Source of the DNA: Patescibacteria group bacterium
Lineage (GTDB): Bacteria > Patescibacteriota > Minisyncoccia > JACQLN01
DNA length: 64,000 nt
Direction of reading: 5' to 3'
Assembly (NCBI GenBank): GCA_038065095.1
Contig: JBBTRR010000004.1
Coordinates: 15,998-79,997 of the forward strand
In this document: positions 6,519-63,177 of the stretch, piece after piece
How positions within the stretch are numbered: position 1 is the first letter of the stretch
Layout of the letters: every line of letters begins with the position of its first letter
Notes under the pieces: generated by a model
Databases searched by the model: none
Seen by the model: only the letters and a program-made list of their open reading frames with translations
Told to the model about the DNA's origin: nothing
Program-made: the position numbers and the translations under genes

Positions 6519-6540
6519 AAAATTATAGCAGATTATTAAT

Positions 6541-6965: not shown

Positions 6966-8084
6966 TTGTTCTTAAGCTTTTCATTATCTAGAAAACTGAT
7001 ATACACATCAGTTTTTTTGTTTGTCCTATCTTTTGGATCAATTTTATTTTTTTCTGGTAATAATTCTGCTAGTTTAGATTCGGATAATAAGAGTATAGTA
7101 GAAGAAATAGATACTGGGGATGAAAGTTTTTTAAAAAAGATAATACCTCAAGAATCTCCGGTAACCTCGGCTATTTTATTTGCTGGTAATTTAGAAAGTA
7201 GAATTAGCGGAGTATTTCGTGGAACAAATTCAAATGGGGTTTTGGGTGGTCCAGAGGATAGTGCGAGTAATTTAGAAACAGCCGGCAATGCTTTAGTAGC
7301 ACAGGGTTCGATATTGGCTATAATTCCAGCAAACACAGATAGTTTTGTATCAGACGGAAACATATTTACCTACGAAATTGAAACTGGAGACAGTTTGGAA
7401 TCAATCGCTAACGATTTTGGTGTTTCAGTTGATACATTACTTAGCGCTAATAACTTACCCAAAGGAACTAAACTAAAAGTTGGCGATAAACTTTCAGTTT
7501 TACCGGTTGATGGTGTTAGACACACTATAAAATCTGGAGACACTATTAAATCTATCGCTATTAAATATAATGCCGATGAAGTTAGAATAATTGCTTTTAA
7601 TGATTTACCCGACGATGGCAAAATTGTTACAGGACAAATTTTAACAATTCCTGGTGGCGAATACCACGTACCAATAAGTATAAGGTATGCGCCGTCTCAA
7701 AATCCATCTGCCGAAAGTTTGCCGATTATTACAGGTTACTATGGTCGTCCATCTAATGGGCGAATAACATTTGGTTTACACAGGTTCAACGCTGTAGATA
7801 TTGGTGGACACGAATGGTGCAATACCCCTCTCTACGCTTCAGCCGCAGGCATTATTATTACTGCCGATGCTCAAGGTTGGAATGGTGGTTATGGTAAATA
7901 TATAAAAATTTCGCACGATAATGGCACTATTACTTTGTATGCCCACGCTTCGCAACTTTTAGTAAGCGAGGGCCAGAGTGTTAAAAAAAGCCAAACCATA
8001 GCTTTGATGGGTTCTACCGGCAATACTACCGGTTGCCATGTTCACTTTGAAGTCCGTGGCGCTAAAAACCCTTTCGCGAACTAG
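6966..8084 (+). CDS. LysM-domain M23 family metallopeptidase (cell-wall hydrolase)
   Basis: N-terminal TM/signal, two LysM repeats (GDSLESIANDFGVSVDTL; GDTIKSIAIKYNADE), C-terminal M23 core with HxH (GCHVHFEV). Confidence 0.8.
   Translation: MFLSFSLSRKLIYTSVFLFVLSFGSILFFSGNNSASLDSDNKSIVEEIDTGDESFLKKIIPQESPVTSAILFAGNLESRISGVFRGTNSNGVLGGPEDSASNLETAGNALVAQGSILAIIPANTDSFVSDGNIFTYEIETGDSLESIANDFGVSVDTLLSANNLPKGTKLKVGDKLSVLPVDGVRHTIKSGDTIKSIAIKYNADEVRIIAFNDLPDDGKIVTGQILTIPGGEYHVPISIRYAPSQNPSAESLPIITGYYGRPSNGRITFGLHRFNAVDIGGHEWCNTPLYASAAGIIITADAQGWNGGYGKYIKISHDNGTITLYAHASQLLVSEGQSVKKSQTIALMGSTGNTTGCHVHFEVRGAKNPFAN
8054..8084. repeat. 31-bp direct repeat, left copy (3' end of the M23 gene)
   Basis: tccgtggcgctaaaaaccctttcgcgaacta is identical to 8742-8772; the two copies bracket the higBA-like cassette. 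Confidence 0.7.
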
Positions 8085-31222: not shown

Positions 31223-31777
31223 ATGAAGCTAAAAATGATTCCCCAAGGAGGATTTTTAAATCCAGACTCTATAATTTCTAGTTTAAATATTAAATCAGGC
31301 TATAAAGTTGCCGATTTTGGTTCTGGTTCTGGTTTTTTTGCTTTGCTTATTGCGGCGATTGTTGGTTCGGACGGTTCGGTTACGGCTATAGATGTTTTGC
31401 AAGGTAAACTGGATACTTTAAAGTCTGCGGCGCAAGCTCGGGGGCTTTTTAACATAAGCTATGTCAGAGGCGATTTAGAAGTTTTTGGTAGTTCTAAACT
31501 TAACGATTTAAGCCAAGATATGGCTCTTTTAACAAATATTTTGTTCCAATCACAAAAAAAGTTGGATATTCTTAAAGAAGCACACAGAGTTTTAAAAGTA
31601 GGCGGAGAGTTAGTTATAGTAGATTGGGATCCAACCTCTATGTTTGGTTCTAAAGAAACTGGTTGGAAGTTTTCTAAAGAGGAGTGCCAGCAGATAGCTT
31701 CTGGAATTGGTTTTAATTTTGATAGAGAAATTACTGCAACTAATGATCATTGGGGATTAGTGTTTAAGAAAACATAA
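31223..31777 (+). CDS. Class I SAM-dependent methyltransferase
   Basis: VADFGSGSGFFALLIA glycine-rich SAM-binding motif I. Confidence 0.65.
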   Translation: MKLKMIPQGGFLNPDSIISSLNIKSGYKVADFGSGSGFFALLIAAIVGSDGSVTAIDVLQGKLDTLKSAAQARGLFNISYVRGDLEVFGSSKLNDLSQDMALLTNILFQSQKKLDILKEAHRVLKVGGELVIVDWDPTSMFGSKETGWKFSKEECQQIASGIGFNFDREITATNDHWGLVFKKT

Positions 31778-31784
31778 TTATCAA

Positions 31785-31872
31785 TTCTCAATTTTGCAAT
31801 TATCAATGAATTTTCAATGATTCAATTATAAAATCCGTTTGAAAATTGAACATTGTAAATTGAAAATTTTAA
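31785..31872. repeat. Palindromic intergenic element, copy 2 (compact form)
   Basis: Arms identical to 6563-6583 and 6688-6717, with only a about 23-bp centre. A third partial arm lies at 33317-33347. Confidence 0.55.
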
Positions 31873-31873
31873 A

Positions 31874-33154
31874 GTGCGTTACAAACTAATCATTTTCATA
31901 ACTGTAGGGGTTCTGGTGCTTTTAGCGGTTTCGGCTTTTTTGTTTGGTAAAAAACCAGGTTCTGGCGATAAAGTTGCTTTGGAATTTTGGGGTACGGATC
32001 CGGCTAGTTACTGGACAGGCATAATTTCTGCTTATCAAACCGCTAATCCAAACGTTACAATTAAATATGTTCAAAAAAATGTTTCTTCTTATGAAAAAGA
32101 TTTTGTAAATTCTTTAGCTTCAGCTTCTGGTCCAGACATTATCACTATAAATAATACTTGGTTAAATAAACACATAAATAAATTATCGCCAATGCCGGGT
32201 TCGTTAATGACTCCGCAGATGTTCCGTGATGCTTTTGCCGATGTTGCTATAAATGATTTGGTTGTAGCTAATAAAATTTATGCCATACCTTTTTATATAG
32301 ATACTATCGGTCTTTACTATAATAAAGCGCTTTTTAATAATGCCGGCATAGTTAATCCACCAAAAACTTGGGACGAATTTAATAGTGATGTAAAACAGTT
32401 AACTCAAAAAGATAGTTCAGGCGATTTTGTAAGATCTGGCGTAGCCTTAGGCACAGTTTCTAATGTTAATTATGCGAGCGATATACTTACGCTTTTAATG
32501 CTTCAAACAGGCGCGCCAATGTTAAGTAGCGATGGTAAAAAAGCCACTTTTGACGCCACTATTAAATCTTTTAACCCAGGTGAATCCGCTTTAAACTTTT
32601 ACACCAGTTTTGCTATAAGTTCCAAACCAGTTTACACGTGGAATGCTAGAATGCCCCAAGCTTTAGAGGCTTTTAAAACAGGAAAGACTGCTATGTATTT
32701 GGGTTATGCTCAAGATTTAAAAGAAATAGCCACAACTGTTAACAATCTTGGTGTGGCGCCTGCGCCTCAAATTAAAGATTCACAAAAAGATGCTTCATAT
32801 TTAGATATTAATTTTGCTTCTTACCAAGCTGGTGCGGTAACTGGAGCCAGTACCAAGAAAGATGCAGCTTGGAACTTTTTGTTTTTTGTTTCAACCAAAA
32901 ACGCAGAGGGTAGTTATATTAATGTTTCGCATTTACCGCCAGCGAGGAAAGATCTGATTTCGTATACTGCTTCGGATCCAGCCTTAAATATTTTTGCTAA
33001 ACAAATTTTAACCGCTTCCAGTTGGGCTCAACCGGACGATGTGGAAGTTAGTATAATTTTTAATAGGATGATAAATTCTGTGGCGTTAAGCCAAACACCT
33101 GCCAAAGAAGCTTTGAAAGAAGCAGTTGCCGAGGTAAATAACCTGCTAAGATAA
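31874..33154 (+). CDS. Extracellular solute-binding protein (ABC transporter family 1-like), orphan
   Basis: 426 aa with N-terminal TM anchor; overall resemblance to sugar-binding SBPs. No adjacent permease or ATPase genes. Confidence 0.5.
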   Translation: MRYKLIIFITVGVLVLLAVSAFLFGKKPGSGDKVALEFWGTDPASYWTGIISAYQTANPNVTIKYVQKNVSSYEKDFVNSLASASGPDIITINNTWLNKHINKLSPMPGSLMTPQMFRDAFADVAINDLVVANKIYAIPFYIDTIGLYYNKALFNNAGIVNPPKTWDEFNSDVKQLTQKDSSGDFVRSGVALGTVSNVNYASDILTLLMLQTGAPMLSSDGKKATFDATIKSFNPGESALNFYTSFAISSKPVYTWNARMPQALEAFKTGKTAMYLGYAQDLKEIATTVNNLGVAPAPQIKDSQKDASYLDINFASYQAGAVTGASTKKDAAWNFLFFVSTKNAEGSYINVSHLPPARKDLISYTASDPALNIFAKQILTASSWAQPDDVEVSIIFNRMINSVALSQTPAKEALKEAVAEVNNLLR

Positions 33155-33180
33155 TTTTCAATGGCCGATTTACTAAAATA

Positions 33181-33306: not shown

Positions 33307-34437
33307 ATGAAAATTGTAAATTGTAAATTGAAAATTATTAAAGCAATTGGATTATTAGCAATTGTTTTGTTGTTGGTCACTGTAATTTCTCCTCCTGCTT
33401 ATGCCGCCAATTGCGGTGCTTCAGTTGACAACCCAGCGACCCCAGAAAATGATACACAACCATGCGTAGGAGGTTTGGTTCCCTGCACGGGTATAAACTG
33501 TTCTCTGTGTGATCTTTTTGCTTTAGCCCAAAATATTTTTAACTTTGTGGTATGGACGCTGGTGCCTATAATTGGCACGGGTATGATTTTATGGAGCGGT
33601 TTTACCATTTTAACCGCAGGCGAAAAGCCAGATCAAGTTAAAAAAGGTAGGAAAATGATAACCGCTACACTAATTGGCATAGCCATAGTTTATTCTTCTT
33701 ACATCATGGCTTCGTTTGTGGTTAAGTTTTTGGCTGGTAATGGCACAGCCAGTTCTAGCTTTAAAAATGGCCAATTTGATATTCAATGTACTAGCGAAGC
33801 AATCCGTGATGTTACAGGTAAATATCTTAAAAACGGTAGTTATACATTTGATATAAAAGATGAAATTTTATTAGCCGAAGAAGAACCAGCTCCAGAAGTT
33901 GTATCTGGACAAGAGGAAGCTTTTGATTTGGGCAAAACAGAAGGTGTTATTTTGAATATTAAAACAAAACCAGGCGTGAATTTAGACGGTGTGGATTCAC
34001 AGGTTATTAATCAATTATCAGCAGCAGTGATAGATGTTAGAACAAACGCAGCAGGCAATCCAAACTTTATCTTACAAGATTTAAAGGTTGCATCCGGTTT
34101 TAGAGATTTAGGAGAACAATTGGATCTTGTTGCTCAAAATTGTAAAGATCCAGATGCGGTTAAATGTGATCCAAAGTCTTCAAAGTATCCTATTACGTGT
34201 ATTCCTAAAGATACGGATCAAAATGGAAGCGTGGATGGCAAAAATTGCCGCCATACCACCGGTAAGGCTTTAGATGTTTGGGGTTATAATAAAAGCGGTG
34301 CTAAGTGTTGCCAAAATGAAGTTATACAAGTTATGAAAAGAAATGGTTTTTGTGTTTACAAAGAAATTTGGCATTTTGAACTTAAATCAAATTTAGAAAA
34401 AGATAAAAACAGGTTAAATGTTTTTACTTGTAACTAA
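33307..34437 (+). CDS. Fusion protein: TrbC/VirB2-like two-TM module fused to C-terminal M15-family peptidoglycan peptidase
   Basis: N-terminal 150 aa parallel the two downstream small paralogs (signal, Cys motif, two TMs with charged loop GEKPDQVKKGRKM). The C-terminal domain has the M15 motifs ASGFRD (SxxR), RHTTGKALDVWGY (HxxGxAxD) and EIWHFE (ExWH). Confidence 0.6.
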   Translation: MKIVNCKLKIIKAIGLLAIVLLLVTVISPPAYAANCGASVDNPATPENDTQPCVGGLVPCTGINCSLCDLFALAQNIFNFVVWTLVPIIGTGMILWSGFTILTAGEKPDQVKKGRKMITATLIGIAIVYSSYIMASFVVKFLAGNGTASSSFKNGQFDIQCTSEAIRDVTGKYLKNGSYTFDIKDEILLAEEEPAPEVVSGQEEAFDLGKTEGVILNIKTKPGVNLDGVDSQVINQLSAAVIDVRTNAAGNPNFILQDLKVASGFRDLGEQLDLVAQNCKDPDAVKCDPKSSKYPITCIPKDTDQNGSVDGKNCRHTTGKALDVWGYNKSGAKCCQNEVIQVMKRNGFCVYKEIWHFELKSNLEKDKNRLNVFTCN

Positions 34438-34786
34438 TTATAAAAAAATGAAAAAAATTGTTTATTTTCTATCTTTATTAATTTTACCCTTAATAACATT
34501 AGCTCAAACTCCACCGTCCTGTGATGGTGTTATATGTAATCCCCTAGGAGATGATGCCACTATAACGGTTTTGATTGATAGAATTATAAACTTTCTTCTC
34601 TACTTAGCCGCGCCTATAGCTGTTTTAATGACGGTTTATGCTGGGTTTTTGTTTATTACTAGAGGTGATAAGCCAGAAGAGATTAAAAAAGCGAGCAAAA
34701 TGCTTCTTTATATTGTTATTGGTGTTATTGTGCTTATACTTTCAAAATCTGTTGTAGGTTTTGTAAATAGTTTTTTGACTCCTTAA
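34418..34786 (+). CDS. TrbC/VirB2-like small two-TM protein (paralog 2)
   Basis: 122 aa: signal peptide, SCDGVICNP, TM1 IINFLLYLAAPIAVLMTVYAGFLFI, loop TRGDKPEEIKKASKM, TM2. Confidence 0.5.
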   Translation: MFLLVTNYKKMKKIVYFLSLLILPLITLAQTPPSCDGVICNPLGDDATITVLIDRIINFLLYLAAPIAVLMTVYAGFLFITRGDKPEEIKKASKMLLYIVIGVIVLILSKSVVGFVNSFLTP

Positions 34787-34886
34787 ATATATCCACAGCT
34801 TGTTTGTTTTGTATTATTACTATGTGATAGAATGATGTTATAAAGTCGTTTTTGTTTTAATTTAAAAACTCTCTAAAATTTAAAAA

Positions 34887-35261
34887 ATGTTTAAAAGTAT
34901 AAATTTGAATAAGTTGATCTCGGTAGGTTTGCTCTCGTTTTTTTTATTCGCTCTTAGTTTTATGGCTGTTAATGCTGCTGAAGTAACAGGAGATCTACAA
35001 CCGGAAATAGTAGGTGTAGAAAGCTTTACTAAAGAACGCCTAACAAGTACGGTGACGATTGTAGTTAACTACATTATTGGCATAGTTGCTATAGTAGCCG
35101 TGGTTATGATTGTCTGGGCAGGTTATTTGTACATTACGGCTGGTATGGACGAAAAGAACGTTGAAAAAGCCAAAAAGATGCTTTTATACGGTATTATCGG
35201 TATTGTCGTAGTTATACTTTCTTACTCAATAGTTAGTTTTGCAACAAGTTTCTTAGGATAA
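34887..35261 (+). CDS. TrbC/VirB2-like small two-TM protein (paralog 3)
   Basis: 124 aa with the same topology; loop TAGMDEKNVEKAKKM; conserved KML(L)Y after the loop. Confidence 0.5.
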   Translation: MFKSINLNKLISVGLLSFFLFALSFMAVNAAEVTGDLQPEIVGVESFTKERLTSTVTIVVNYIIGIVAIVAVVMIVWAGYLYITAGMDEKNVEKAKKMLLYGIIGIVVVILSYSIVSFATSFLG

Positions 35262-35406
35262 TGTTATTAGGTATTATTTTTTTCTAAATAAGATATTTAA
35301 AAAACACTCCGATTTTTGTCGGAGTGTTTTAGTTTATCCCGTTAGAAGCTCTGTTGCCTTCTTTAAAGGTGTGGATTTGAGTTTTTAAAAATGTTACAAT
35401 TTAGAT

Positions 35407-35718
35407 ATGGAAGAGACAACCCTGTCGTCAAAAACTGAGCGATTGCCAGAGTTTTTTAGGCCACTTTTTTGGTCGTATAATTTTGATTATATTGATCCCG
35501 ATAAAGACATAAAAACAATAGTTTTGAATGTGATAAATTATGGGTATTGGAAACACTGGCATTGGTTGGTTTATCATTACGGCATAGATGTCATTAGAAA
35601 TATTTTGACCCATTTTTTGTCAACGGAACTTAGGCCGCCAGCGGAAAAACTAGCGAGGGTTGTATTCAATTTAAAATCTCTTAACAATGCATCTCGAAGC
35701 ACTAACCAAGACAGGTAG
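35407..35718 (+). CDS. Hypothetical small protein overlapping the AbiEii gene (possible cognate antitoxin)
   Basis: 103 aa; overlaps the downstream NTase toxin gene by 32 nt in a different frame (typical TA coupling). No recognisable domain. Confidence 0.3.
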   Translation: MEETTLSSKTERLPEFFRPLFWSYNFDYIDPDKDIKTIVLNVINYGYWKHWHWLVYHYGIDVIRNILTHFLSTELRPPAEKLARVVFNLKSLNNASRSTNQDR

Positions 35719-36307
35719 GGAAATTTTTCCAATTCTCAAGAATTTTTCGGAATTCTATTTAGCTGGCGGCACGGCTTTGGCTTTGCAATTAGGTCATCGC
35801 GTTTCGGCTGATTTTGATTTATTTAGCGGGATTGATATTCCGGCAGAATTACTGCCACTGGTTCAAAAGACTTTTGATAAAAAGACTTTTCAAATCAGCG
35901 TCAATAACAGAGAGGAACTGACAGTATTTATAAATGGCGTTAAGATTACTTTTTTGAATTATCCATTTCCAGTTTTAGAAGATACAACTGAATATGAAGG
36001 TTTAAAAATGTTAGGCGTTTCCGAAATAGCCACAACCAAAGCTTATACTATCGGGCGCCGAGGCTCGTTTAAAGATTATGTTGATTTATATTTTGCAGTT
36101 AAGGAAAAAATTATTGGTTTGGACGGAATTATTAAACAGGCTGATAAAAAATATGGGGGATATTTTAACGGTCGTCTGTTTTTAGAACAGTTGGTTTATT
36201 TAAATGATATTGAGGATACAGAGATTATTTTTCTAAAAGAAACAGTGGATAAAAATAATCTAGAGGAGTTTTTTGTGGCAGAAATTAAAAAGATCAAATT
36301 TGATTGA
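35687..36307 (+). CDS. AbiEii/AbiGii-family nucleotidyltransferase toxin (DUF1814)
   Basis: FYLAGGTALALQLGHRVSADFDLF and KDYVDLYF motifs are characteristic of AbiEii. Confidence 0.65.
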   Translation: MHLEALTKTGREIFPILKNFSEFYLAGGTALALQLGHRVSADFDLFSGIDIPAELLPLVQKTFDKKTFQISVNNREELTVFINGVKITFLNYPFPVLEDTTEYEGLKMLGVSEIATTKAYTIGRRGSFKDYVDLYFAVKEKIIGLDGIIKQADKKYGGYFNGRLFLEQLVYLNDIEDTEIIFLKETVDKNNLEEFFVAEIKKIKFD

Positions 36308-36447: not shown

Positions 36448-37299
36448 TCATTCGTTGTTTACAGGAGTAAATACTACCAAGCCGAGTTGGCTACGAACAC
36501 GGAATTTTTTTAAAGATGGGTAGTTAAAATCTTGACTCGAATATGCCGTTATATATTCATTTGAACCTTCTCGCTTAAAATGCGCCCAACCTTTAAAAAC
36601 TACATTATAATTCCCATATAAAGTAATTAATTCGGAAAAATCTTTATCATTACCGTAAACAAATATTGTTTCTTCTCTGCTATATTTTTTATCTTGGTAA
36701 GTGGAATATGTGTGATTGAAGCTGTTTAAGACAAAACCAACAGGGTTAGGATCAAAAAGAGAAAGAGAAGTGTAAGTCATTGTCCCCATAACTATCAGAG
36801 TATAAAGCTTCGGCGGAATCCAACTGCCCCATAAAAATATACCTATAACTAGAGCCATACCGCATATTAACAATTTAGGCACAGCTCCTGGGTTATTTTC
36901 TATGGGCATTTCTATTGTGTAGAGAAAAACCAGTATAGATACAAATAAAGCTGTTAGCATTCCTCTTACATAGCTACTGCCGGCAATGGCGGGATTGATG
37001 GTTTCGCCTTTTAGCATACCAATTACTATGCCAAGTGGTGAGCCTAAAAATGCTAAAGCTACACCTAAAATAAAGCATAAACCTACGCCAATGTAGGCAA
37101 ACCACGGCCAGCCGGTTAGGGCTTTGAGTATAATTGAAGCGAATATAATCAAGAACCAAATAGCTACACCTTTGGCCAGTGCCTTAAGATATGCCGGCGC
37201 CGAAGATTTTACTTTTTGATAAGTTTTTTCGGCGCCGTATATGGCGATATCAAACATCAGTTCAACTGTTTTGCCTAAAGATTCACCAGTTGTGGCCAT
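36448..37299 (-). CDS. Polytopic membrane protein, hypothetical
   Basis: 283 aa with about 6 TM helices and a C-terminal soluble about 100-aa domain; 14-nt overlap with the upstream gene. Confidence 0.5.
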   Translation of the reverse strand: MATTGESLGKTVELMFDIAIYGAEKTYQKVKSSAPAYLKALAKGVAIWFLIIFASIILKALTGWPWFAYIGVGLCFILGVALAFLGSPLGIVIGMLKGETINPAIAGSSYVRGMLTALFVSILVFLYTIEMPIENNPGAVPKLLICGMALVIGIFLWGSWIPPKLYTLIVMGTMTYTSLSLFDPNPVGFVLNSFNHTYSTYQDKKYSREETIFVYGNDKDFSELITLYGNYNVVFKGWAHFKREGSNEYITAYSSQDFNYPSLKKFRVRSQLGLVVFTPVNNE

Positions 37300-37311
37300 A
37301 TTAAGCCTCCT

Positions 37312-37806
37312 TTATGGTGAGCTTGTTGAACCAGCAGGTTTTAGTTTGTCTCGGATTTCTTGCAGTTTCTTATTAAAACTTTCCAGCACAGGAGATGCTG
37401 ATTCTACTTTAGGATAAGCCAATTCCATAATTTGGTTAAACAGAGTTATTTCTCCTTTTATTTTCTCAAATTCTTTTTGCGGGTCTTCGGCGCTTCTTAG
37501 ACGTTCTAGTATTTGGGCTAAAAAATTCTGAAGCAGATCTTGTTTAGTAGTGTTACTTTTTGTTTGTGCTAAAACCGTAGAAAGAAAACCCGAAAAATCG
37601 CCTAGTTTTTTTACAACCACCGAAGATGTGTTAGAAAATTTTTCGGCGTGGGTTTCTACTATTCCTCGTAACACGCCCGAAATATATTCGGCTAAGTTGG
37701 AACGTAATAAACTTCCTTCGGGAATTTTTTCTGCTAATTCTTGTATCCGCTTTATTGAAGCAGGATCAAACAGCCCAGCCATTCCAGCTATCCACCTTTT
37801 GTCCAT
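37312..37806 (-). CDS. Helical soluble hypothetical protein
   Basis: 164 aa, no TM, charged and helical; co-transcribed with 36448..37299. Confidence 0.45.
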   Translation of the reverse strand: MDKRWIAGMAGLFDPASIKRIQELAEKIPEGSLLRSNLAEYISGVLRGIVETHAEKFSNTSSVVVKKLGDFSGFLSTVLAQTKSNTTKQDLLQNFLAQILERLRSAEDPQKEFEKIKGEITLFNQIMELAYPKVESASPVLESFNKKLQEIRDKLKPAGSTSSP

Positions 37807-37933
37807 TTATAATGCCTCCTAATTTTTAAGGAACATAAAGAACTATTTGATTAGATTATAGAATGATTTTACTTTAGAAGCGAGAAGGTAATATTTCCAG
37901 AAGGACATTCCTTCTGGAAAGAAGCCAAAAAAA

Positions 37934-37958
37934 CTCCCCCGACGCAAGGTCGGGGGAG
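37934..37958. terminator. GC hairpin terminator (cccccgacgc family, copy 4)
   Basis: aaaaaaa-ctcccccgacgcaaggtcgggggag directly downstream of 37983..39185. Confidence 0.6.
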
Positions 37959-37982
37959 GGTTAGGGTACAAATTAAAGAGCT

Positions 37983-39185
37983 TCATTGTTCGGAGATTGT
38001 TATGGTTCCAGTGCCGGCTACACCGCGCACTATGAACCACCTTACTTCGCCAGCTCGGCGAAATTCCATAGAATGTGGGTAGCTCACTTGAGCTCCCCAC
38101 GATTCTATGTAGGTGATCAAGCCAGAACTGGTAGTGCCGTCGTTACGGTTAATGATTCTATCGCCCGTAGAAAGCATAACTTCATACTTTCCTGGCATAT
38201 CCCATTTAACGTTGTAATCTGGACTCCATGGGATTTTTTTGGACCAGTGAACTGGGTCCAAATTTACCGTGATTTTTTGAGCGAGGCCTTCCACCTTAGG
38301 CTCCGGCTTGTTGTAGTGTCCACGTCGTTCCGGCGAAGGATTTAAACTCTCCTTTCTTTTTTGGACTTCGTGAACACTAGCCACCAATTGTTGATGGGCA
38401 TCTACATCGGCTTGGAACCCGCCGTGATAGTAGTAGCTTGCAAACTGGTTTAGCGCTAGAAGCAAGCCGATCACGATAATAAGCACGATCGCGATCACTC
38501 TTAATTTTTTTACCGCGGCGGCAATAATTATCAGGATGATAACCGCAATAGCTATCGTCCAAAATAATTTTTCACCGCTAAGGCCGCTAAGGTTGTTCAT
38601 ATCGGGCACGTTTGGCAGTTTATCACCAATCACACCGGCCAAACTAAAACCGCCGGTATCGGAGATAAACTCTTTGTTCTTCTCGCGCCAAGATATGTTT
38701 TTTTGAATCTTATTTCTGATAACATCTTGGCGTTTTTGATATGCCGAGAAATCGCCTGTCCGAATGTATTCGGATTCAGAGTTTTTAAGCTCTTGGCTGA
38801 CTTCTTCACCAAGTTTATCTTCTATACGATCGGAGCTTTCTTTCAGGGCGGCTATTTGGGCCAGTCCAGAAGGATGTAGATATTCTCCGAGGCGCATATC
38901 TTCGCGTAAACTTCTTTTTCCAAGTTCTGGACGAACGTAAGGGCTTCCGCTTAAAAAACTATCAAGCGCTGTCGGCCCAAAACGTATGGCTAGCCAAACG
39001 ATAAAAAAGAAACTCACCCATTTGTTTACTGGCGCGGGAATCTTCTGGATAAGAACAAAGAGAAAAATTATTCCCGCGATCGCAAGACACATCCAGAAAG
39101 TCATAAGCCCCACTTGCCAAAAGACAAATGAGATCGCTATAACTATCCAGAAGATTGTCCAGTTCCATGTAATGTTCATAGCCAC
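37983..39185 (-). CDS. Membrane protein with GC-rich C-terminal beta domain, hypothetical
   Basis: 400 aa with 3-4 TMs. The C-terminal about 150 aa are encoded by 55-60% GC DNA in an otherwise about 30-35% GC genome. Confidence 0.5.
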   Translation of the reverse strand: MAMNITWNWTIFWIVIAISFVFWQVGLMTFWMCLAIAGIIFLFVLIQKIPAPVNKWVSFFFIVWLAIRFGPTALDSFLSGSPYVRPELGKRSLREDMRLGEYLHPSGLAQIAALKESSDRIEDKLGEEVSQELKNSESEYIRTGDFSAYQKRQDVIRNKIQKNISWREKNKEFISDTGGFSLAGVIGDKLPNVPDMNNLSGLSGEKLFWTIAIAVIILIIIAAAVKKLRVIAIVLIIVIGLLLALNQFASYYYHGGFQADVDAHQQLVASVHEVQKRKESLNPSPERRGHYNKPEPKVEGLAQKITVNLDPVHWSKKIPWSPDYNVKWDMPGKYEVMLSTGDRIINRNDGTTSSGLITYIESWGAQVSYPHSMEFRRAGEVRWFIVRGVAGTGTITISEQ

Positions 39186-40120
39186 CTCCGGAAGAATTTA
39201 GCAATGGTTATTTCCTCAAGGAAAAACTTAAACGCTTTTCCTATGGAACTCATAACGCTGTGTTTACCTCCGCCTCCACTTGTTGGATTTGGACTCGCGC
39301 TGGAAGCAGTATGTCCTTTAAAAGCTTTACTGATAGCTGATCCAGCTTCTTCTTTAAACGAGATGATGGTATAGATTAAAAGGATTGGTATTGCCACTAT
39401 GGACAATAGCCACAACCACCAAGACAAAGTGCTTGCTGTTTTTTTAAACCAGCTAGATTTTGTTTTGGCGATTTCTTTTTTTCCTGCCAGCTCTTGATCT
39501 GTTTTGAACTGACCACGCTCGGCAAGGTTTTTTCTTTTCTCTGCCGTATCGGCTTTTCTTGTTTCTGCCGATGCAGAGATGCTGGTAGGAAATAGTGGTT
39601 TGTTTGGGCCGATACCGATCGCAAAAATGTTGAATATCATCCAAAAAATCCAGACCACCCAAAACGTTTTTGCGCGGAAATTATTTTGGTTATCGTTTTT
39701 TGTGGTGAATCTCACCCAAAACCAGTGAACTGGTTTGAGAAAGGGATTCATATCGCTCGGTGCCGCAGGATAACTTATTGGCGGTTTCTTGGGCGGAGGT
39801 AATGGCTCCAGATTAAATTCTTCTTGCTTTTCTGGAGTGTGAATCTCCAACTTTCCTGGCACAGCATTAAAGGTGCAAACACCTTTGGAATCAGTCTGCT
39901 CTGTTTTCTGGCTACCGTTCTGTATAAAGATGAAGGAGACTCCCGCTTCCGGCTTACCGGCTTTGTGAGCCGATGCCACAATCACCCAATTGCCATCTGT
40001 TTTTTGGGAACGAGATAGAAATATTTTTATGGGTGGTTGCGGTGGCGGTTGTGGTACAGGTCTTGGTCCTGTGGGTCTTGGGCTTCCAGATCCTCCGTGC
40101 GTTGGTCCTCTTTTAGCCAT
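39176..40120 (-). CDS. Pro-rich membrane protein with Ig/CarboxypepD_reg-like domain, hypothetical
   Basis: 314 aa; N-terminal PxP-rich region, beta-sandwich-like segment (GNWVIVASAHKAGKPEAGVSFIFIQNG...GVCTFNAVPGKLEI), two TMs; GC-elevated; 10-nt overlap with the downstream gene. Confidence 0.5.
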   Translation of the reverse strand: MAKRGPTHGGSGSPRPTGPRPVPQPPPQPPIKIFLSRSQKTDGNWVIVASAHKAGKPEAGVSFIFIQNGSQKTEQTDSKGVCTFNAVPGKLEIHTPEKQEEFNLEPLPPPKKPPISYPAAPSDMNPFLKPVHWFWVRFTTKNDNQNNFRAKTFWVVWIFWMIFNIFAIGIGPNKPLFPTSISASAETRKADTAEKRKNLAERGQFKTDQELAGKKEIAKTKSSWFKKTASTLSWWLWLLSIVAIPILLIYTIISFKEEAGSAISKAFKGHTASSASPNPTSGGGGKHSVMSSIGKAFKFFLEEITIAKFFRRWL

Positions 40121-40383
40121 TAAGGTGTCTCCTTTTAGTGTTTTTACTGCGTAAGTTTTTAAGTTACTAACCGTTTTCTGTGTGTTTATATACTATACTA
40201 AAGTAACTCAAAAGTCAAGTTTAAAACTAGGCTCATAAGATGCTTAAGATAAGAGGTGATTTTTTACTGTTTTTACTGTAATATTTCTTTTATGCCCTAG
40301 TGGTGAAATTGTCCCGAAAAATACAGGGTGCAGCGTGACAATATTTTTCGAGGATCCCGTTTTCCTGCGAGTGGTGTGTTTAA

Positions 40384-40645
40384 GGGCGAGTGGATTAAAA
40401 GCAAATGTTTTTGCTTTTAATGGCCAACTACATTAATTAATATGATTTATAGGTTGGCCTTGGAGAAATTGGCAGAATTATTCTACACAAAGTGCTGGGG
40501 TGGCGAAATTGGTAGACGCACTAGCCTTAGGAGTTAGCGGGGCAACCCATGGGAGTTCGAGTCTCCCCCCCAGCACTTTGTGTAGAATACCGCAAGGATT
40601 AATCGTGACAACGTCACGATTAATGGTTCAAATCCCACCTCGCCC
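40384..40645. repeat. About 260-bp multi-level inverted-repeat structure enclosing tRNA-Leu
   Basis: Outer IR GGGCGAGtGG / CCaCCTCGCCC. Two perfect palindromes, attaaaagcaaatgtttttgcttttaat (40394-40421) and attaatcgtgacaacgtcacgattaat (40598-40624). Inner 13-bp IR ttctacacaaagt / actttgtgtagaa directly abuts the tRNA acceptor ends. Confidence 0.5.
40494..40575 (+). tRNA. tRNA-Leu (anticodon UAG), class II with long variable arm
   Basis: GCTGGGG-TG-GCG-AAATTGGTAGA-CGC-A-CTAGC-CTTAGGA-GTTAG-CGGGGCAACCCATG-GGGAG-TTCGAGT-CTCCC-CCCCAGC-A. Confidence 0.85.
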
Positions 40646-40731
40646 ACATTCAGCTTGTGTTATTTGGAAATAGTGTTAATATGTTTAAGCAACGTCGAAT
40701 GTTACAAGTAAAAATAGTTTAAAATAGTCAT

Positions 40732-40938
40732 ATGACAGGACCAAAAACAGGAACAATCAAAACCCTTAGAGAAGGATTTGGATTCATATCTCGCGAAGGC
40801 GTAGATAAGGATCTTTTCTTTCATGCTAAAGATCTTGATGGACTTACGTTTGATGAACTTAAAGTTGGAGACAATCTTTCTTTTGATGTTGAAGAAACTG
40901 AAAAAGGAACAGCCGCCAAAAAAGTATCTCGTTCGTAA
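40732..40938 (+). CDS. cspA: Cold-shock protein (CspA family)
   Basis: 68 aa; GTIKTLREGFGFISREG (RNP1-like KGFGFI motif). Confidence 0.9.
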   Translation: MTGPKTGTIKTLREGFGFISREGVDKDLFFHAKDLDGLTFDELKVGDNLSFDVEETEKGTAAKKVSRS

Positions 40939-40985
40939 TCTTTTAAGAAATACTTTTAAAAAGTATTTCTATATAGATAATAAAA

Positions 40986-41010
40986 TTCCCCCGACACTAG
41001 GTCGGGGGAA
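40986..41010. terminator. GC hairpin terminator (cccccgacgc family, copy 5), bidirectional
   Basis: aaaa-ttcccccgacactaggtcgggggaa-tttt between convergent cspA and the 3D-domain gene. Confidence 0.6.
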
Positions 41011-41016
41011 TTTTAT

Positions 41017-41559
41017 TCAGAGTGAATAGTCTTCTATAACTTCAATTTGCAGTTTTTTTCGGCCGAAAGTTTTGGCTTCTTGTTTGGTAGGAAACCAAAT
41101 GTCTACTTTCTCGGTGTGGCGTCTGGCCATACGGTCTTCTACTACGAATATTTTATTTCCAAACATTTCTGGTATTCTAATTTTGGTGCCCATCGGCAAA
41201 AAGTTAGCAGCAACTATACCGTCGCGTACTTTTTTACCAGAAGCAGTTATAAAAGGAGTGCTGTCTGTTTCATCTATACTAGACGAGTAAGCGGTTACAA
41301 AAGTTTCGTATACCTTAATCACACCTATTAAAGGTTGGCCAGAAGTTATTAGAGCTATACCGTTTATAGTAGCAAGGTCGTTATTTTCTTTTTCGTAGTC
41401 GGCTAAGACTATGGGAGAAATTTTATTCTTAAGCCAAGAACTTATACTGTCTGTGTTTATATCAATTAAGCCTGCGTGTGCATAAGCAGGCACAGAAGAC
41501 ATTAAGATTATGGCTATAATTAGCCTTAAAATAAACGCTTTTTTTATAATGTTTTTCAT
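41017..41559 (-). CDS. 3D-domain protein (YuiC/MltA-like cell-wall binding)
   Basis: Signal peptide; C-terminal TFVTAYS...DGIVAANFLPMGTKIRIPE...VVEDRMARRHTEKVDIW fits the 3D domain. Confidence 0.65.
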   Translation of the reverse strand: MKNIIKKAFILRLIIAIILMSSVPAYAHAGLIDINTDSISSWLKNKISPIVLADYEKENNDLATINGIALITSGQPLIGVIKVYETFVTAYSSSIDETDSTPFITASGKKVRDGIVAANFLPMGTKIRIPEMFGNKIFVVEDRMARRHTEKVDIWFPTKQEAKTFGRKKLQIEVIEDYSL

Positions 41560-58316: not shown

Positions 58317-60080
58317 ATGACCCTCGATTTAGAAAAATTTAAAAAATTCTTAATAGATTCAAATTTAGTTTCGGCCAAGAACTTAGAATTAGCCGAAGCC
58401 GAAGAAAAAGAAACTGGTCGCAGGCTGGACGATGTTTTGCTAAGGCGAAATTTTGTTTCCGAAGAAATGATGGTTAAAGCTAAGGCCTATGTTTTAGGAA
58501 TTCCCTTTGTGGATTTAACAAATCAAAAAGTTGAACCAGAAATTTTAAAAATAATTCCCGAACCAATTGCTCGTAACAGTAACATTGTGGCTTTTCGCAA
58601 AACAGGAGCTGATCTTGAAGTGGCCATGCTTGATCCTAACGATTTACAAACCATAGATTTTATAAAGAAAAAAGCCAGTCTTAATATTTTACCTAGATTA
58701 ACTTCGCGCCAATCTTTAGAAGCTGTTTTAAGGCAGTATCAACGTAGTTTAGAGGATGAATTTAGCAATATTATAAAAGCTGAATCTTCAGCTGTGCTTA
58801 AAGTTGTAGAGTTAGCTTCAAAAGATGGCAAAATAAAATCTGATGCCGAATTACAACGTGTGGCCGAAGAATTACCTGTTGTAAAAATTGTGGATACGCT
58901 AATACGTCATGCTATTTTAGAAAATGCTTCCGATATCCACATAGAGCCCGAAGAAAAAGATATAGTGGTACGTTATCGCATTGATGGTGTATTAAAAGAT
59001 GTAATGACTCTGCCTCAAGCTGTGCACGATGGCATTGTGGCTCGTATTAAAGTTTTATCTAATTTAAAATTAGATGAACATAGACTGCCTCAAGATGGTC
59101 GTTTTAAAATAGAAGGAGATGGTTTTAAGGTTTCTTTTCGTGTTTCTATTTTGCCAGTTTACGATGGCGAAAAAATTGTGATGCGTCTTTTGCAGGAAGA
59201 CGCACAAGGTTTTACGTTAGAAAGTTTGGGTTATAGGGGTAAGGCTTTAGAAATTTTACACCGCGCCATTAAACGTCCAACTGGTTTAATTTTATCTACC
59301 GGTCCCACCGGTTCAGGAAAAACCACTTCGCTTTATACAATTTTGGATATTTTAAATACTCCAGAAGTTAATATTTCAACCATAGAAGACCCAATAGAAT
59401 ATAGAATACCGCGTGTTAATCAAACGCAAGTTAAACCCGAAATTGGTTTTACTTTTGCTCAAGGTTTACGCACGTTGGTTCGCCAAGATCCCGACATTGT
59501 TATGGTAGGAGAAATACGTGATAGTGAAACAGCTGCTTTGGCTATTAATGCTTCGCTCACGGGGCATTTGGTTGTTTCTACTTTACATACCAATTCTGCG
59601 GCTGGTGCTGTACCTAGATTAATTGATATGAAAGTAGAACCGTTTTTAATTTCATCTACGATGACGGCTATTATAGCTCAAAGATTAGTAAGATGCCTTT
59701 CACCAGACAGCCGAACTAAATATAGTCTTACAAAAACAGAGATAGAGTCGCTAGGTAAGGAAATAGATTCAGAAAAAGTTTTAAAAACACTTAAAGCCGA
59801 AAAAGCTATTGGGCCAAAAGATACATGGGAATCAATAAGTTTTTATAGACCTAAAGAAACCGAGACCGCTCCAACGGGCTATAAAGGTAGAATTGGAATT
59901 TTTGAAGTTTTGGATATTACACCAAAAATTAAAGAACTTATTGTGGCTTCGGCAACTTCGGACGATATTCAAAAAGTGGCCGAAGAAGAGGGCATGATAA
60001 CTATGTTGGAAGACGGTTTTATAAAAGCAGTTCAAGGTATAACCAGTATAGAAGAAATTTTAAGAGCTTCAAGGGAATAA
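58317..60080 (+). CDS. pilB: Type IV pilus assembly ATPase PilB/GspE family
   Basis: 587 aa; N-terminal GSPII_E domain, Walker A LSTGPTGSGKTTSLYT, Asp and His boxes, tetracysteine-like region. Confidence 0.9.
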   Translation: MTLDLEKFKKFLIDSNLVSAKNLELAEAEEKETGRRLDDVLLRRNFVSEEMMVKAKAYVLGIPFVDLTNQKVEPEILKIIPEPIARNSNIVAFRKTGADLEVAMLDPNDLQTIDFIKKKASLNILPRLTSRQSLEAVLRQYQRSLEDEFSNIIKAESSAVLKVVELASKDGKIKSDAELQRVAEELPVVKIVDTLIRHAILENASDIHIEPEEKDIVVRYRIDGVLKDVMTLPQAVHDGIVARIKVLSNLKLDEHRLPQDGRFKIEGDGFKVSFRVSILPVYDGEKIVMRLLQEDAQGFTLESLGYRGKALEILHRAIKRPTGLILSTGPTGSGKTTSLYTILDILNTPEVNISTIEDPIEYRIPRVNQTQVKPEIGFTFAQGLRTLVRQDPDIVMVGEIRDSETAALAINASLTGHLVVSTLHTNSAAGAVPRLIDMKVEPFLISSTMTAIIAQRLVRCLSPDSRTKYSLTKTEIESLGKEIDSEKVLKTLKAEKAIGPKDTWESISFYRPKETETAPTGYKGRIGIFEVLDITPKIKELIVASATSDDIQKVAEEEGMITMLEDGFIKAVQGITSIEEILRASRE

Positions 60081-60084
60081 GGGC

Positions 60085-60215
60085 TTTGTTCGCGAGCGGA
60101 GCGAGCGATAACAAAACCTTATGGTGAGTGTAGCGAATCCATTACATTAAAGTAATTCTTCGATTATACTCAGGATGCTCAAATTTAATAATTAATCGCT
60201 TCGCTCTTAAATAAA
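60085..60215. repeat. Palindrome-containing intergenic repeat, copy 2 (upstream of pilC)
   Basis: gagcgagcgataa ... gctcaaatttaataattaatcgcttcgctc; terminal portion shared with 44600-44700. Confidence 0.4.
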
Positions 60216-60221
60216 TTTGGC

Positions 60222-61469
60222 ATGGAATACGAATATAAAGCTGTTTCTAAAGACGGCAAAAAAACTGAAGGTGTAAAAATGGCCGATAGCCAAATATCTT
60301 TGGCGCGCAGTTTAAGGGAAGACGGAATGTTTTTAATTTCTGCTAGGGAAAAAGGGGTTAATGGTCCTTTGCCTGAAAGCGTATCAATTTTAAAGAAAGA
60401 TGTTTTTAATTCTTTAGAGTTTTTATTTAAGTATGTTAGTTTGCAAGAAAAAGTTATTTTTGCCCGCCATTTAGGCTTGATGATACGAGCTGGTTTTTCT
60501 TTAAATAAAGCGCTAGATACTTTATCTCGGCAAACAAAAAATAAATATTTTTCACAAGCGCTCAAGAATATAAGTGGCAGAGTAGCTTCGGGCGAAACTT
60601 TTAGCCAAGCGATTTCTTATTATCCTAATATTTTTCCAGATCTTTTTGTGAGTATGGCTAAAGTGGGTGAGGCTTCGGGTAAATTAGAAAGCACTTTAAA
60701 GTTGGTTATGATGCATTTGCGTCGTGAGTATATGCTTAAGCGAAAAATACACGGAGCTTTGGTTTACCCAAGTATAATAGTGGTAGCCATGTTGGGCGTG
60801 GGTGCTGTTATGATGACATTTGTTTTGCCGCAATTGGCCAGCACATTTGCAGAACTTAATGTACCTTTACCTATAAGTACGCAGATAATTTTTGGCATTT
60901 CTAACTTTATGAGCCAGTATTGGTATTTTTTAATTTTAATTCTGGTTGTAGTTAGTTATTCTCTTTATTTCTTTTTTCGAAAAACAAAGTTAGGCAAGAA
61001 AGCGATAAATCTATTTTTATTAAAAACACCAATTTTTTCCGATATTACTAAAAAAATAAATTCAGCTAGATTTGCTAGAACTCTCAGTTCTTTGCTTTTA
61101 GGCGGAATACCATTAGTAGAGGCTATACGTATTACTAGTGATTCACTGACAAATTATTTTTATAAAAAAATTATTGCTGAAACTATGGTTGAAATTGAAA
61201 AAGGAAAAAACTTATCTTCTTTGTTAATAAAATATCCTAATATGTTTCCACCCGTAGTTACCGAGATGATAGCTGTAGGCGAGGAAACAGGCTCGCTCGC
61301 TGATATTTTAAAAGAATTAGCGCATTTTTTTGAATCGGAAGTATCTATAGCTACTAAAAGTATGTCTTCTGTAATTGAGCCGGTGATAATGATTTTAATG
61401 GGTATAGCTGTGGGAATTTTTGCCTTGTCTGTAATACAACCTATTTATTCGATAGGAGCAGGTCTGTAA
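60222..61469 (+). CDS. pilC: Type IV pilus inner-membrane platform protein PilC/GspF family
   Basis: 415 aa; two T2SSF repeats (..ARFARTLSSLLLGGIPLVEAI..; ..PVVTEMIAVGEETGSL..) and three TMs. Confidence 0.85.
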   Translation: MEYEYKAVSKDGKKTEGVKMADSQISLARSLREDGMFLISAREKGVNGPLPESVSILKKDVFNSLEFLFKYVSLQEKVIFARHLGLMIRAGFSLNKALDTLSRQTKNKYFSQALKNISGRVASGETFSQAISYYPNIFPDLFVSMAKVGEASGKLESTLKLVMMHLRREYMLKRKIHGALVYPSIIVVAMLGVGAVMMTFVLPQLASTFAELNVPLPISTQIIFGISNFMSQYWYFLILILVVVSYSLYFFFRKTKLGKKAINLFLLKTPIFSDITKKINSARFARTLSSLLLGGIPLVEAIRITSDSLTNYFYKKIIAETMVEIEKGKNLSSLLIKYPNMFPPVVTEMIAVGEETGSLADILKELAHFFESEVSIATKSMSSVIEPVIMILMGIAVGIFALSVIQPIYSIGAGL

Positions 61470-61634
61470 GTTAGATATTAGCTTTCTAGCTCCTTAGCTC
61501 CTTAGCTTTTTAGGTAAGATTTCCTAGGAAGTTAATATACTAGAAAGCTAAAAGATATTTATGAAAGGATTTACCTCGACACAAGAAAATGGCGTTGTCT
61601 CTACAGCATTTTTAGTAAAATAAAGTTAGTTAAT

Positions 61635-62561
61635 ATGAAAAAGAAATGGCTAAAGTTCTCTAATATCTTAAGGAGACAAAATGAAAATTCTTCGCCATTT
61701 TTCTGTGCGGGGTTTACATTAGTTGAACTTCTTGTGGTCATAGCTATCACCTCTATTTTACTGGCTGGTGGCGTAGTATCGTTAAGTAGTATAAGAACTT
61801 CAAGTAGTTTATCGGCTGGAGCCGATACCATCAGACTAACTTTAGAAAAATCTCGTCTCTCAGCCTTAGTTAAAGAAAATGAAACCGGCTATAGCGTGAA
61901 ATTAAATGAAAATAATATTGTTTTATTTAAAGGTATGTCTTACGACCTGAACAATTCTAGCAATAAAATTATTAACTTGCCTTCAAGCACAAAGATTACC
62001 AGTGTTAACTTGGGTAATGGTAACAGCATAGTCTCGTTTAGTAGTCTTACTGGTACAACTAGTCCAGGCACAATAGTATTATCGTCCACTATTGATCCTT
62101 CACATATTAGAACGATTTATTTAGATGGTTCTGGGCGTATTTATCATGCTTATACATCTGCTGGTGGAGGAGGAGGTGGCGGTTCTGGTGGTGATGGTCA
62201 GGTTACTGATAGTGGGCATCAAGAATTTAATTTGGGTTGGAGCATTCAAGACACATCAGAAATTAAATTTAAATTTCTAGATCCGCCAACGACCAAAATT
62301 TTTCTTATGCAGCCGCACTTAAATGGCAGTAAAACAGTTTTTAATTATGTTGGTTATTTTAATGAGGGCGGTGTAAATCAGAAGATAACAATGTATTCTA
62401 ATCAATTAGATCCCAATAACACTATTCTTTCTATAACTAGGGAACCCAAGGGTTCTGGGCCGACGTTAGAAATTTCCATAGACAATAATGTTATTGTGAC
62501 TTATTTTGCTGATGGTACAGTTTCGGTGGGTTCCAGTGGCGGAACAATGATAGCGCAGTAG
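61635..62561 (+). CDS. Type IV pilin-like protein with Gly-rich internal tract
   Basis: Prepilin leader plus N-methylation-site hydrophobic helix AGFTLVELLVVIAITSILLAGG; 308 aa; poly-Gly stretch AGGGGGGGSGGDG. Confidence 0.7.
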   Translation: MKKKWLKFSNILRRQNENSSPFFCAGFTLVELLVVIAITSILLAGGVVSLSSIRTSSSLSAGADTIRLTLEKSRLSALVKENETGYSVKLNENNIVLFKGMSYDLNNSSNKIINLPSSTKITSVNLGNGNSIVSFSSLTGTTSPGTIVLSSTIDPSHIRTIYLDGSGRIYHAYTSAGGGGGGGSGGDGQVTDSGHQEFNLGWSIQDTSEIKFKFLDPPTTKIFLMQPHLNGSKTVFNYVGYFNEGGVNQKITMYSNQLDPNNTILSITREPKGSGPTLEISIDNNVIVTYFADGTVSVGSSGGTMIAQ

Positions 62562-62678
62562 TTTTTCGATATAATGATAGTTGTTAGTTATAAGTTTCTG
62601 TTTTTAGTTTAAGTTTTAAGTTAAACTGGCAACTATAACTATTAACTATAACTAGAAATTAAGAACTATAAACTGATT

Positions 62679-63152: not shown

Positions 63153-63177
63153 TTTCCAAATCCTAATTTCTAAACAA

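Follow-up and report, generated by a model that had tools for sequence, protein, structure and literature searches.

We examined a 64,000-nucleotide (nt) stretch of a 384-kb groundwater Patescibacteria contig (ENA Hain_H52), hereafter called the window, together with the adjacent contig sequence beyond it (84 kb visible in total). The window is AT-rich (GC about 35%) and encodes gyrA, FtsH, PNPase, NusA, many toxin-antitoxin pairs and a type IV pilus cluster. Both this set of genes and the relatives found in databases assign it to Patescibacteria/CPR. The subject of this work is a set of three consecutive genes, which by sequence encode members of the VirB2/TrbC-like pilin family, the first of them extended at its C terminus by a predicted M15 zinc peptidase. 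The three open reading frames (ORFs) are co-oriented on the + strand and span 33307-34437 (376 amino acids, aa), 34418-34786 (122 aa) and 34887-35261 (124 aa).

Gene 1, the pilin-M15 fusion (33307..34437, +), encodes 376 aa when read from the ATG at 33307 and 369 aa when read from the TTG at 33328. The TTG start matches the database copy P0001 and the homolog P0002 (369 aa), and translation may begin there. For gene 2, a plain VirB2-like pilin (34448..34786, +; 112 aa), the mechanical ORF begins at 34418, while the N-termini of homologs indicate that the start is most likely the ATG at 34448. Genes 1 and 2 would therefore not overlap. Gene 3, likewise a plain VirB2-like pilin (34887..35261, +; 124 aa), lacks cysteines entirely; a protein identical to it (P0170) has been named 'TrbC/VirB2 family protein' by NCBI. 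The three-gene unit is closed by a terminator-like hairpin (35301..35338, +) with a 13-bp stem followed by a U-rich tail, for which a folding energy of -20.5 kcal/mol and a z-score of -6.5 relative to shuffled sequences were obtained. A scan for sigma-70 promoters was uninformative (25 sites versus 18.7 ± 4.3 expected). No RNA family of known kind was found in the region of the trio, and the five tRNAs of the window all lie elsewhere.

The pilin modules

Read from its N terminus, the gene 1 protein consists of a signal peptide, an acidic Cys-containing segment, a first transmembrane (TM) helix, a basic loop, a second TM helix, a β-hairpin, a disordered linker and the M15 domain. The predicted Sec-type signal peptide (33307..33402, +; residues 1-32) ends in ...PPAYA/AN and shows, by eye, the hydrophobic core AIGLLAIVLLLVTVI followed by A-x-A; AlphaFold2 (AF2) places a helix over residues 2-27. 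The pilin module (33469..33756, +; residues 55-150) comprises an LVPC-x-G-x2-C-x2-C motif, TM1, the basic loop GEKPDQVKKGRKM and TM2. It was modelled by AF2 with helices at residues 67-103 and 108-147 (predicted local distance difference test, pLDDT, about 80-87), and the Pfam pilin match covers residues 71-138. C60, C65 and C68 are invariant among 18 homologs, as is the LVPC-x-G-x2-C-x2-C motif.

An initial annotation of this DNA had ascribed to all three proteins a signal peptide, a short cysteine-containing segment and two TM helices separated by a conserved charged loop. The signal peptide and the two hydrophobic helices with a short basic loop were found in the sequences as well as in the AF2 helices and hold for all three proteins, whereas the cysteine-containing segment does not apply to gene 3. 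The loop peptides that had been listed are all present, but they had been assigned to the genes in the wrong order; the correct assignment is GEKPDQVKKGRKM for gene 1, GDKPEEIKKASKM for gene 2 and GMDEKNVEKAKKM for gene 3.

With regard to family membership, all three proteins exceed the curated Pfam cut-off of PF18895 (T4SS_pilin; 29.9, 49.9 and 50.1 bits for genes 1, 2 and 3, cut-off 26.6). Genes 2 and 3 also exceed that of PF04956 (TrbC/VirB2; 32.1 and 31.6 bits, cut-off 27.9), for which gene 1 reaches only 17.7 bits. In NCBIfam only a near-threshold match was obtained, to a pilin-like family of Mycoplasma integrative and conjugative elements. Pairwise identities of the pilin modules amount to 31% for genes 1 and 2 (E = 2.5e-14), 32% for genes 1 and 3 (1.8e-14) and 44% for genes 2 and 3 (3e-22); judged by these alignments, the three modules are real paralogs. 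They share the family signature W/Y-x-G-[FY]-x2-I-T-x-G...K-x3-K-M...I-G, and the hairpin of gene 1 retains it in the form WxG[FY]..IT.G......K...KM....IG, a likeness that goes beyond mere hydrophobicity. By profile, all three are thus members of the VirB2/TrbC-like T4SS_pilin family and are not type IV prepilins, as had initially been proposed.

The peptidase domain of gene 1

The pilin hairpin and the C-terminal domain of gene 1 are linked by roughly 60, mostly disordered residues. This connecting part (33757..33918, +) begins with a β-hairpin carrying the conserved residues F152, F157 and C161 and continues into a variable stretch (residues ~163-200, pLDDT <50). The C-terminal domain itself (33919..34434, +; residues 205-376) is a predicted M15 (LAS-fold) zinc peptidase domain with several conserved cysteines. 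Its catalytic residues are encoded at 34102-34104 (R266), 34252-34254 (H316), 34273-34275 (D323), 34363-34365 (E353) and 34372-34374 (H356). The M15 motifs named in the initial annotation, namely SGFRD with R266, H316-x6-D323 and E353-x-W355-H356, are all present, and the catalytic set is kept in homologs. In an alignment of 18 close homologs (36-75% identity over aligned columns), R266 of the S-G-x-R motif, H316, D323, E353, W355, H356 and ten cysteines are invariant. Among 144 representatives of distant clusters the two His and the Asp are still invariant, and conservation is 90% or more for the Arg, the Trp and the E-x-W-H Glu.

Comparison of the C-terminal region with M15 peptidases of known structure gave concordant results at the level of profile and fold. 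A profile of the M15 domain matched LysB4 (E = 2e-5) and Ply500 (6e-4) as well as the LdcB-type carboxypeptidases 4mph, 4jid and 4ox3 in the PDB. These alignments pair the Arg and the zinc-ligand motifs correctly, with the ligands falling on SNH, AVD and PHFE of Ply500. AlphaFold reaches a pLDDT of about 90 over residues 220-376, and the top Foldseek matches are the phage L-Ala-D-Glu endolysins Ply500 (E = 1.5e-5), LysB4 (6e-5) and LysECD7 (8e-4), with a probability of 1.00; target TM-scores of the matches, which include the RB49 peptidase, range from 0.48 to 0.62. Because of the conserved catalytic residues, the profile-to-PDB matches and the predicted fold, the C terminus of gene 1 is assigned to the M15/LAS zinc peptidases, and none of the catalytic residues (Arg, H-x6-D, E-x-x-H) is missing. 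The bond cut may be L-Ala-D-Glu, as with the M15C endolysins that are the closest structures, or that of a D-Ala-D-Ala/LD-carboxypeptidase; LdcB-type enzymes come next among the matches. No SLT or CHAP domain was matched in gene 1 by Pfam.

Distribution of the fusion

There are no more than about 20 close homologs of gene 1, every one in a metagenome-assembled genome of Patescibacteria; Minisyncoccia, Parcubacteria, Sungbacteria and Yanofskybacteria are among the source labels. All contain PF18895 and some also VanY. In the databases they are named 'hypothetical', 'D-alanyl-D-alanine carboxypeptidase family protein' or 'Peptidase M15B'. A profile re-search of a large protein database returned only 17 matches, crowded by word candidates. 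In a distant search the M15-domain profile was run against 1.84 billion cluster representatives (50% identity clusters), yielding 709 clusters at E<=1e-3, of which 223 reach E<=1e-10; in nearly all of those clusters the M15 domain is C-terminal in a protein of 300-500 aa. A domain tally of the top 100 representatives, from which the six close relatives heading the list had been left out, gave PF18895 in 72/100, VanY in 61/100 and Peptidase_M15 in 24/100 (VanY and M15 at E<=1e-3), and a custom hidden Markov model of the hairpin matches 118 of the 144 distant representatives. From the PF18895 and hairpin counts it follows that the pilin-M15 fusion forms a large family and is not peculiar to one genome. 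This family of at least 223 clusters (50% identity) at present carries no annotation beyond 'hypothetical' or 'D-Ala-D-Ala carboxypeptidase family'.

The same hairpin is also found on sister proteins with other cargos. Here, Peptidase_M23 scores above threshold (36.9 bits) and SLT just under its cut-off (20.9 bits), in addition to an SLT_3 lysozyme-like domain (E = 4e-5) and Peptidase_C39_2. Such pilin-hydrolase fusions, carrying SLT, SLT_3, M23 or C39_2, are encoded at L048 10492-11826, L052 10447-11973, L053 7987-9282, L076 340-1590, L065 7032-8084 and L021 3494-4735. They adjoin pilin-M15 genes, or occupy the position of these genes, in other lineages, often downstream of DsbA. As a set, M15, M23, SLT-like and C39-like domains resemble the multi-domain VirB1-type hydrolases of Gram-positive conjugation, e.g. 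PrgK. At the level of sequence, these occurrences suggest that in many cases the wall hydrolase is part of a pilin rather than a separate VirB1, with M15 as the most visible cargo. No description of a pilin-hydrolase fusion, including the pilin-M15 fusion, was found in the searched literature. The pilin trio as such is an already known kind of locus, while the cargo-bearing pilin is new, widespread and undescribed.

The co-occurrence of the triplet in related genomes, suggested initially as a check, was found in every relative's locus examined, each of which contains a pilin-M15 gene and two to three plain pilins. All of these loci share a methyltransferase gene (with gyrA ahead of it on contigs that reach far enough), an orphan solute-binding protein (SBP) gene, the pilin-M15 gene and the 2-3 plain pilins, followed by several reverse-strand genes without assigned function and, on longer contigs, by TrpRS, XerC and NusA. 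The order of SBP gene, pilin-M15 and 2-3 plain pilins is kept down to 33% identity.

This conservation bears on the possibility that the locus is a phage-derived lysis or bacteriocin cassette, in which case the proteins with two helices would act as holins or confer immunity, and the M15 domain would serve as endolysin. Such an origin would agree with the phage endolysins among the best structural matches of the M15 domain and with weak PHROG matches (endolysin family, membrane protein; E ~0.03). On the other hand, no holin, endolysin or immunity family was matched in PHROGs, Pfam or NCBIfam, the small proteins pass the curated TrbC/VirB2 thresholds, and there are no phage genes nearby, the neighbours being gyrA, the methyltransferase, the solute-binding protein and TrpRS. 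The synteny is chromosomal. We therefore rejected this explanation, which is effectively refuted. The initial annotation had itself named membership of the small proteins in an unrelated family such as holins or immunity proteins, together with loss of the M15 catalytic triad, as what would speak against it; no such family was matched and the catalytic set is complete.

Relation to a type IV secretion machine

A Pfam scan detected no VirB4, VirD4 or VirB6 within the window, in agreement with the earlier statement that VirB4 and VirD4 ATPases are missing from it, yet a VirB4 lies on the same contig just outside the left edge. This VirB4/TraC-like ATPase of 598 aa (P-loop_TraG 86, AAA_10 44.5, DUF87 38.7 bits) is encoded 4.6-6.4 kb past the left edge. 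It is preceded by a 222-aa TraC-like fragment, and the two together occupy L081 17340-19782, corresponding to window positions of about -3964 to -6406. The interval from the ATPase gene to the window codes for two proteins of 906 and 663 aa without Pfam match. Of these, the 906-aa ORF extends into the window (1-2590) and is adjoined by a 262-aa gene (2587-3375); window positions 1-3375 (-) also belong to this region. The search for VirB4 and VirB6 homologs that had been proposed thus succeeded for VirB4 on the contig, but not for VirB6 in the window. Beyond the trio, no other pilin-like ORFs or M15-family domains were found in the 84 kb inspected. Apart from the LysM-M23 gene described below, Pfam recognised no hydrolase within the same 84 kb, which is counted in favour of the link to type IV secretion.

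A published precedent for the combination of these parts exists in Southlakia epibionticum. Its type IV secretion system (T4SS) cluster SEML1_0006-0019, of which all but one gene scored as essential, contains VirB4, PrgI, a VirB6-like protein, six PF18895 pilins and a lysozyme/cysteine-proteinase protein (PMC10633639). Beside VirB4 it encodes the likewise essential SEML1_0007. This protein of 1113 aa ends in a 'Hedgehog/DD-peptidase' domain, and a 'Peptidase M15B domain-containing protein' is given as its best match in structure (PMC10633639). S. epibionticum thus has an M15-fold enzyme and a pilin array in one machine, so that the parts that are separate there would be fused here.

Other features of the neighbourhood

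Upstream of the trio lies an orphan gene for a membrane-anchored SBP_bac_1 protein (31874-33154, +) without a permease or ATPase gene nearby. In all loci of relatives examined, an SBP gene precedes the pilin-M15 gene; the distance is sometimes only 7-57 nt, and in a few loci a single small gene separates the two. Downstream, a pair encoding a DUF6922 protein and an AbiEii nucleotidyltransferase toxin (35407-36307, +) is placed between the trio and a reverse-strand cluster. The AbiEii neighbour noted initially is therefore present; the AbiEii/DUF6922 pair is an insertion that is missing at the same position in syntenic relatives. The reverse-strand cluster (36448-40120, -) consists of four membrane/coiled-coil genes (283, 164, 400 and 314 aa) without Pfam or PHROG family. 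The GC content of the 38-40 kb stretch is indeed raised (0.43-0.46), but the region is syntenic in relatives and is therefore not a recent island, contrary to the earlier description of a GC-anomalous island.

Further downstream, a secreted 180-aa protein (41017-41559, -) matches the phage family phrog_6631 (E = 3.6e-10) and, weakly, the 3D (MltA/YuiC-like) domain. Its gene is conserved in the same neighbourhood of relatives, and by these matches it may be another wall-active protein. The reverse-strand genes from 36448 to 41559 were considered as part of the system and rejected, as they are kept only within the same lineage and are absent from other contexts of the fusion.

Two further loci of the window are recorded here. 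A wall hydrolase with two LysM domains and Peptidase_M23 is encoded at 6966-8084 (+), about 3.6 kb from the gene adjoining the T4SS-side cluster. The type IV pilus cluster (58317-63732, +, and beyond) encodes a PilB ATPase, PilC and three prepilins with N-methylation motifs, with PilM and PilN just past the right edge of the window; its filament is distinct from anything that the VirB2-like trio would form.

The start of gene 1 is overlapped by a heptamer repeat, (AAATTGT)n-AAATTGAAAATT (33309..33336, +), which encodes the N-terminus 'MKIVNCKLKI'. Four other genomes (L003, L008, L013, L015), the pilin-M15 proteins of which are only 39-48% identical, retain the exact 21-mer AAATTGTAAATTGTAAATTGA where their pilin-M15 gene starts. 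Within the window, arms of the heptamer AAATTG[T/A] occur in inverted arrangement at 6538-6578 (-) and 6690-6719 (+), between uvrD and the M23-LysM gene and upstream of the latter, and again at 31776-31818 and 31840-31869, directly upstream of the solute-binding-protein gene; a remnant of the element lies at 33157-33166. The inverted arms bracket intergenic regions (10 matches versus 0.6 expected). Judged by its placement and sequence, the element could be a regulatory site or an element resembling a miniature inverted-repeat transposable element (MITE) or a repetitive extragenic palindrome (REP).

Discussion

We propose that the modular VirB2-like pilin encoded by gene 1 serves to tether a peptidoglycan peptidase where pilins or the T4SS are assembled, or to deliver it there, acting as an analogue of VirB1, and give this proposal about an even chance of being correct. 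The trio would then be a pilin operon of the Patescibacteria T4SS with a modular pilin as first subunit. The loop between the two TM helices is basic (net charge +3), and by the positive-inside rule it would be cytoplasmic, which would therefore place the acidic N-terminal segment and the M15 domain outside the membrane, by the wall. An extracytoplasmic M15 domain fits its many conserved cysteines and the DsbA gene directly upstream of fusions in other lineages. The hairpin could bring the enzyme into the membrane pool of pilins and so to the site of VirB4-driven assembly; alternatively, the enzyme could enter the filament as a minor subunit with its cargo facing outward. There it would cut peptidoglycan stem peptides and so make a local opening in the wall for a pilus or channel, which is the job of VirB1-type hydrolases elsewhere. 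The initial annotation had likewise suggested a surface-filament or channel module that opens peptidoglycan; this is plausible in view of the VirB4 on the contig, the Southlakia cluster and the M23, SLT-like and C39-like sister fusions, and it is something we infer rather than observe.

The published picture of Patescibacteria secretion leaves room for such an enzyme. VirB2-like pilin arrays of 2-11 divergent genes are known from these bacteria, with 441 arrays surveyed and pilins near virB4 in 1135 of the 1948 assemblies having both, and most genomes with VirB2 homologs are without VirB1, for which other hydrolases may substitute (Quinonero-Coronel et al. 2025, PMC12102498). Published surveys report few VirB1 homologs and conclude that VirB1 is possibly dispensable for pilus biogenesis. 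The Patescibacteria T4SS, which is essential in the one species tested, is devoid of relaxases, and its predicted pili are unusual for a single-membrane cell.

Several observations weigh against assigning the fusion to a secretion pilus. On the structural side, the hairpin shows no significant similarity to solved VirB2 structures; the T-pilus VirB2 (8exh) was only the 30th Foldseek match (E = 3.4, TM 0.62). For the small paralogs, whose comparison with VirB2/TrbC had been suggested at the outset, the Pfam thresholds are passed, but the AF2 model of gene 3 (pLDDT 64.5) matched only generic helical hairpins, and a plain-pilin sequence profile found no match in the PDB, an outcome that is uninformative and not a negative. 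The VanY score of the gene 1 protein (14.1-16.5 bits) lies below the Pfam cut-off of 25. Concerning genomic context, the VirB4 cluster is about 38 kb from the trio and not adjacent to it, and near distant pilin-M15 genes none of the 33-35 classified large P-loop ORFs on about 25 metagenomic loci of at least 9 kb is a VirB4; those ORFs are RecG, RadA, ClpB and DnaA. The distant fusions reside in housekeeping or envelope contexts, namely ClpB-DsbA-...-RadA-RecG or near DnaA together with Wzy_C-like and glycosyltransferase genes, the latter a context of envelope glycosylation and not of T4SS genes. Finally, a VirB2-type pilus has not been observed in any Patescibacterium, and reviews call the pili potential, i.e. 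predicted.

The same contexts favour the alternative that gene 1 encodes an ordinary membrane-anchored carboxy- or endopeptidase of the wall, like VanY or LdcB, for growth and division, with the pilin-like hairpin as a mere anchor in this lineage and no secretion system involved. These are conserved core-chromosome settings, as is gyrA...TrpRS here, and no VirB4 was found within 10 kb in the other fusion loci. The matches of the M15 profile to 4mph, 4jid and 4ox3 also point in this direction, and M23, SLT and M15 are typical autolysin domains as well. Against it stands that one TM helix would suffice as an anchor, yet the hairpin keeps the pilin family signature, that gene 1 is co-oriented with two cargo-less pilins before a terminator-like hairpin, and that the Southlakia secretion cluster pairs a protein of DD-peptidase fold with pilins. 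We regard a housekeeping role of this kind as a serious alternative, though less likely than not.

A further alternative places the fusion in an extracellular VirB2-type filament with the peptidase facing outward, where it would cut the wall of a host bacterium at the point of contact, so that an epibiont could feed or insert a channel. In filaments of VirB2-type pilins the termini are exposed on the outer surface, and F-pilin can display proteins fused to its C terminus by engineering. The structures nearest to the M15 domain are those of lytic phage endolysins that cleave L-Ala-D-Glu, the T4SS and pilins are essential for epibiotic growth in one tested species, and modular type IV pilins provide a precedent for cargo-bearing pilins (PMC8179133). 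Conversely, the filament, the incorporation of a cargo of 170 residues and any host for this organism are all without evidence, and the same data fit an action on the bacterium's own wall. That the fusion arms a pilus in this way consequently appears unlikely to us, and it is equally doubtful that Patescibacteria as a group build enzyme-armed VirB2-type pili (with M15 here and M23, SLT-like or C39-like cargos elsewhere) that breach host peptidoglycan. Armed pili would, if real, explain why the T4SS and the pilin arrays are essential for epibiotic growth.

Whether the tethered enzyme acts at an assembly site, as we propose, or in one of the other two ways, the fusion is a testable handle on the role of the Patescibacteria T4SS and pili, and it bears on how ultra-small epibionts handle cell walls, their own or those of a host.

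Comparison with known systems

The closest known systems are the VirB2/TrbC conjugative pilins and the PF18895 arrays of Patescibacteria, with which the locus shares the signal peptide, the two-helix hairpin, the basic loop, the tandem divergent paralogs (31-44% identity here, published array mean 25%) and a VirB4 gene in the genome (Wang et al. 2023, PMC10633639; PMC12102498). Unlike in these arrays, the first subunit carries a C-terminal enzyme of about 170 residues, and the array is located about 38 kb from VirB4. With the VirB1-type hydrolases (VirB1; Gram-positive PrgK, TraG, CwlT, TcpG), gene 1 has in common the proposed local opening of the wall, the membrane tether and the extracytoplasmic site; the cargo set found on pilin hairpins (M15, M23, SLT-like and a C39-like cysteine peptidase) also resembles their multi-domain make-up. 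It differs from them by an M15 zinc peptidase in place of SLT or CHAP, by a pilin hairpin in place of a single helix and by a gene that is not beside VirB4. By this comparison gene 1 would be a functional analogue of VirB1 at most.

SEML1_0007 is alike, by annotation, in having a DD-peptidase/M15-fold domain tied to a Patescibacteria T4SS with a PF18895 array, but it is a separate and far larger protein with no pilin domain in its table entry. The M15C endolysins (Ply500 2vo9, LysB4 6akv, LysECD7 8q2g) and the VanY/LdcB enzymes of M15B share with the gene 1 domain the LAS fold, the H...D...H ligands, the Arg of S-x-x-R and the acidic residue three positions before the last His. Identity to these enzymes is only 17-20%. 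The gene 1 domain has many additional conserved cysteines and an inserted stretch that separates the Arg motif from the first His, and it is pilin-fused, chromosomal and outside any lysis cassette. The modular pilins PilB and PilC of Streptococcus sanguinis are type IV pilins, from a filament superfamily unrelated to the VirB2 type, and their cargo is adhesive and not enzymatic; the concept is nevertheless the same, a functional module at the C terminus of a pilin that is encoded among plain pilins (PMC8179133).

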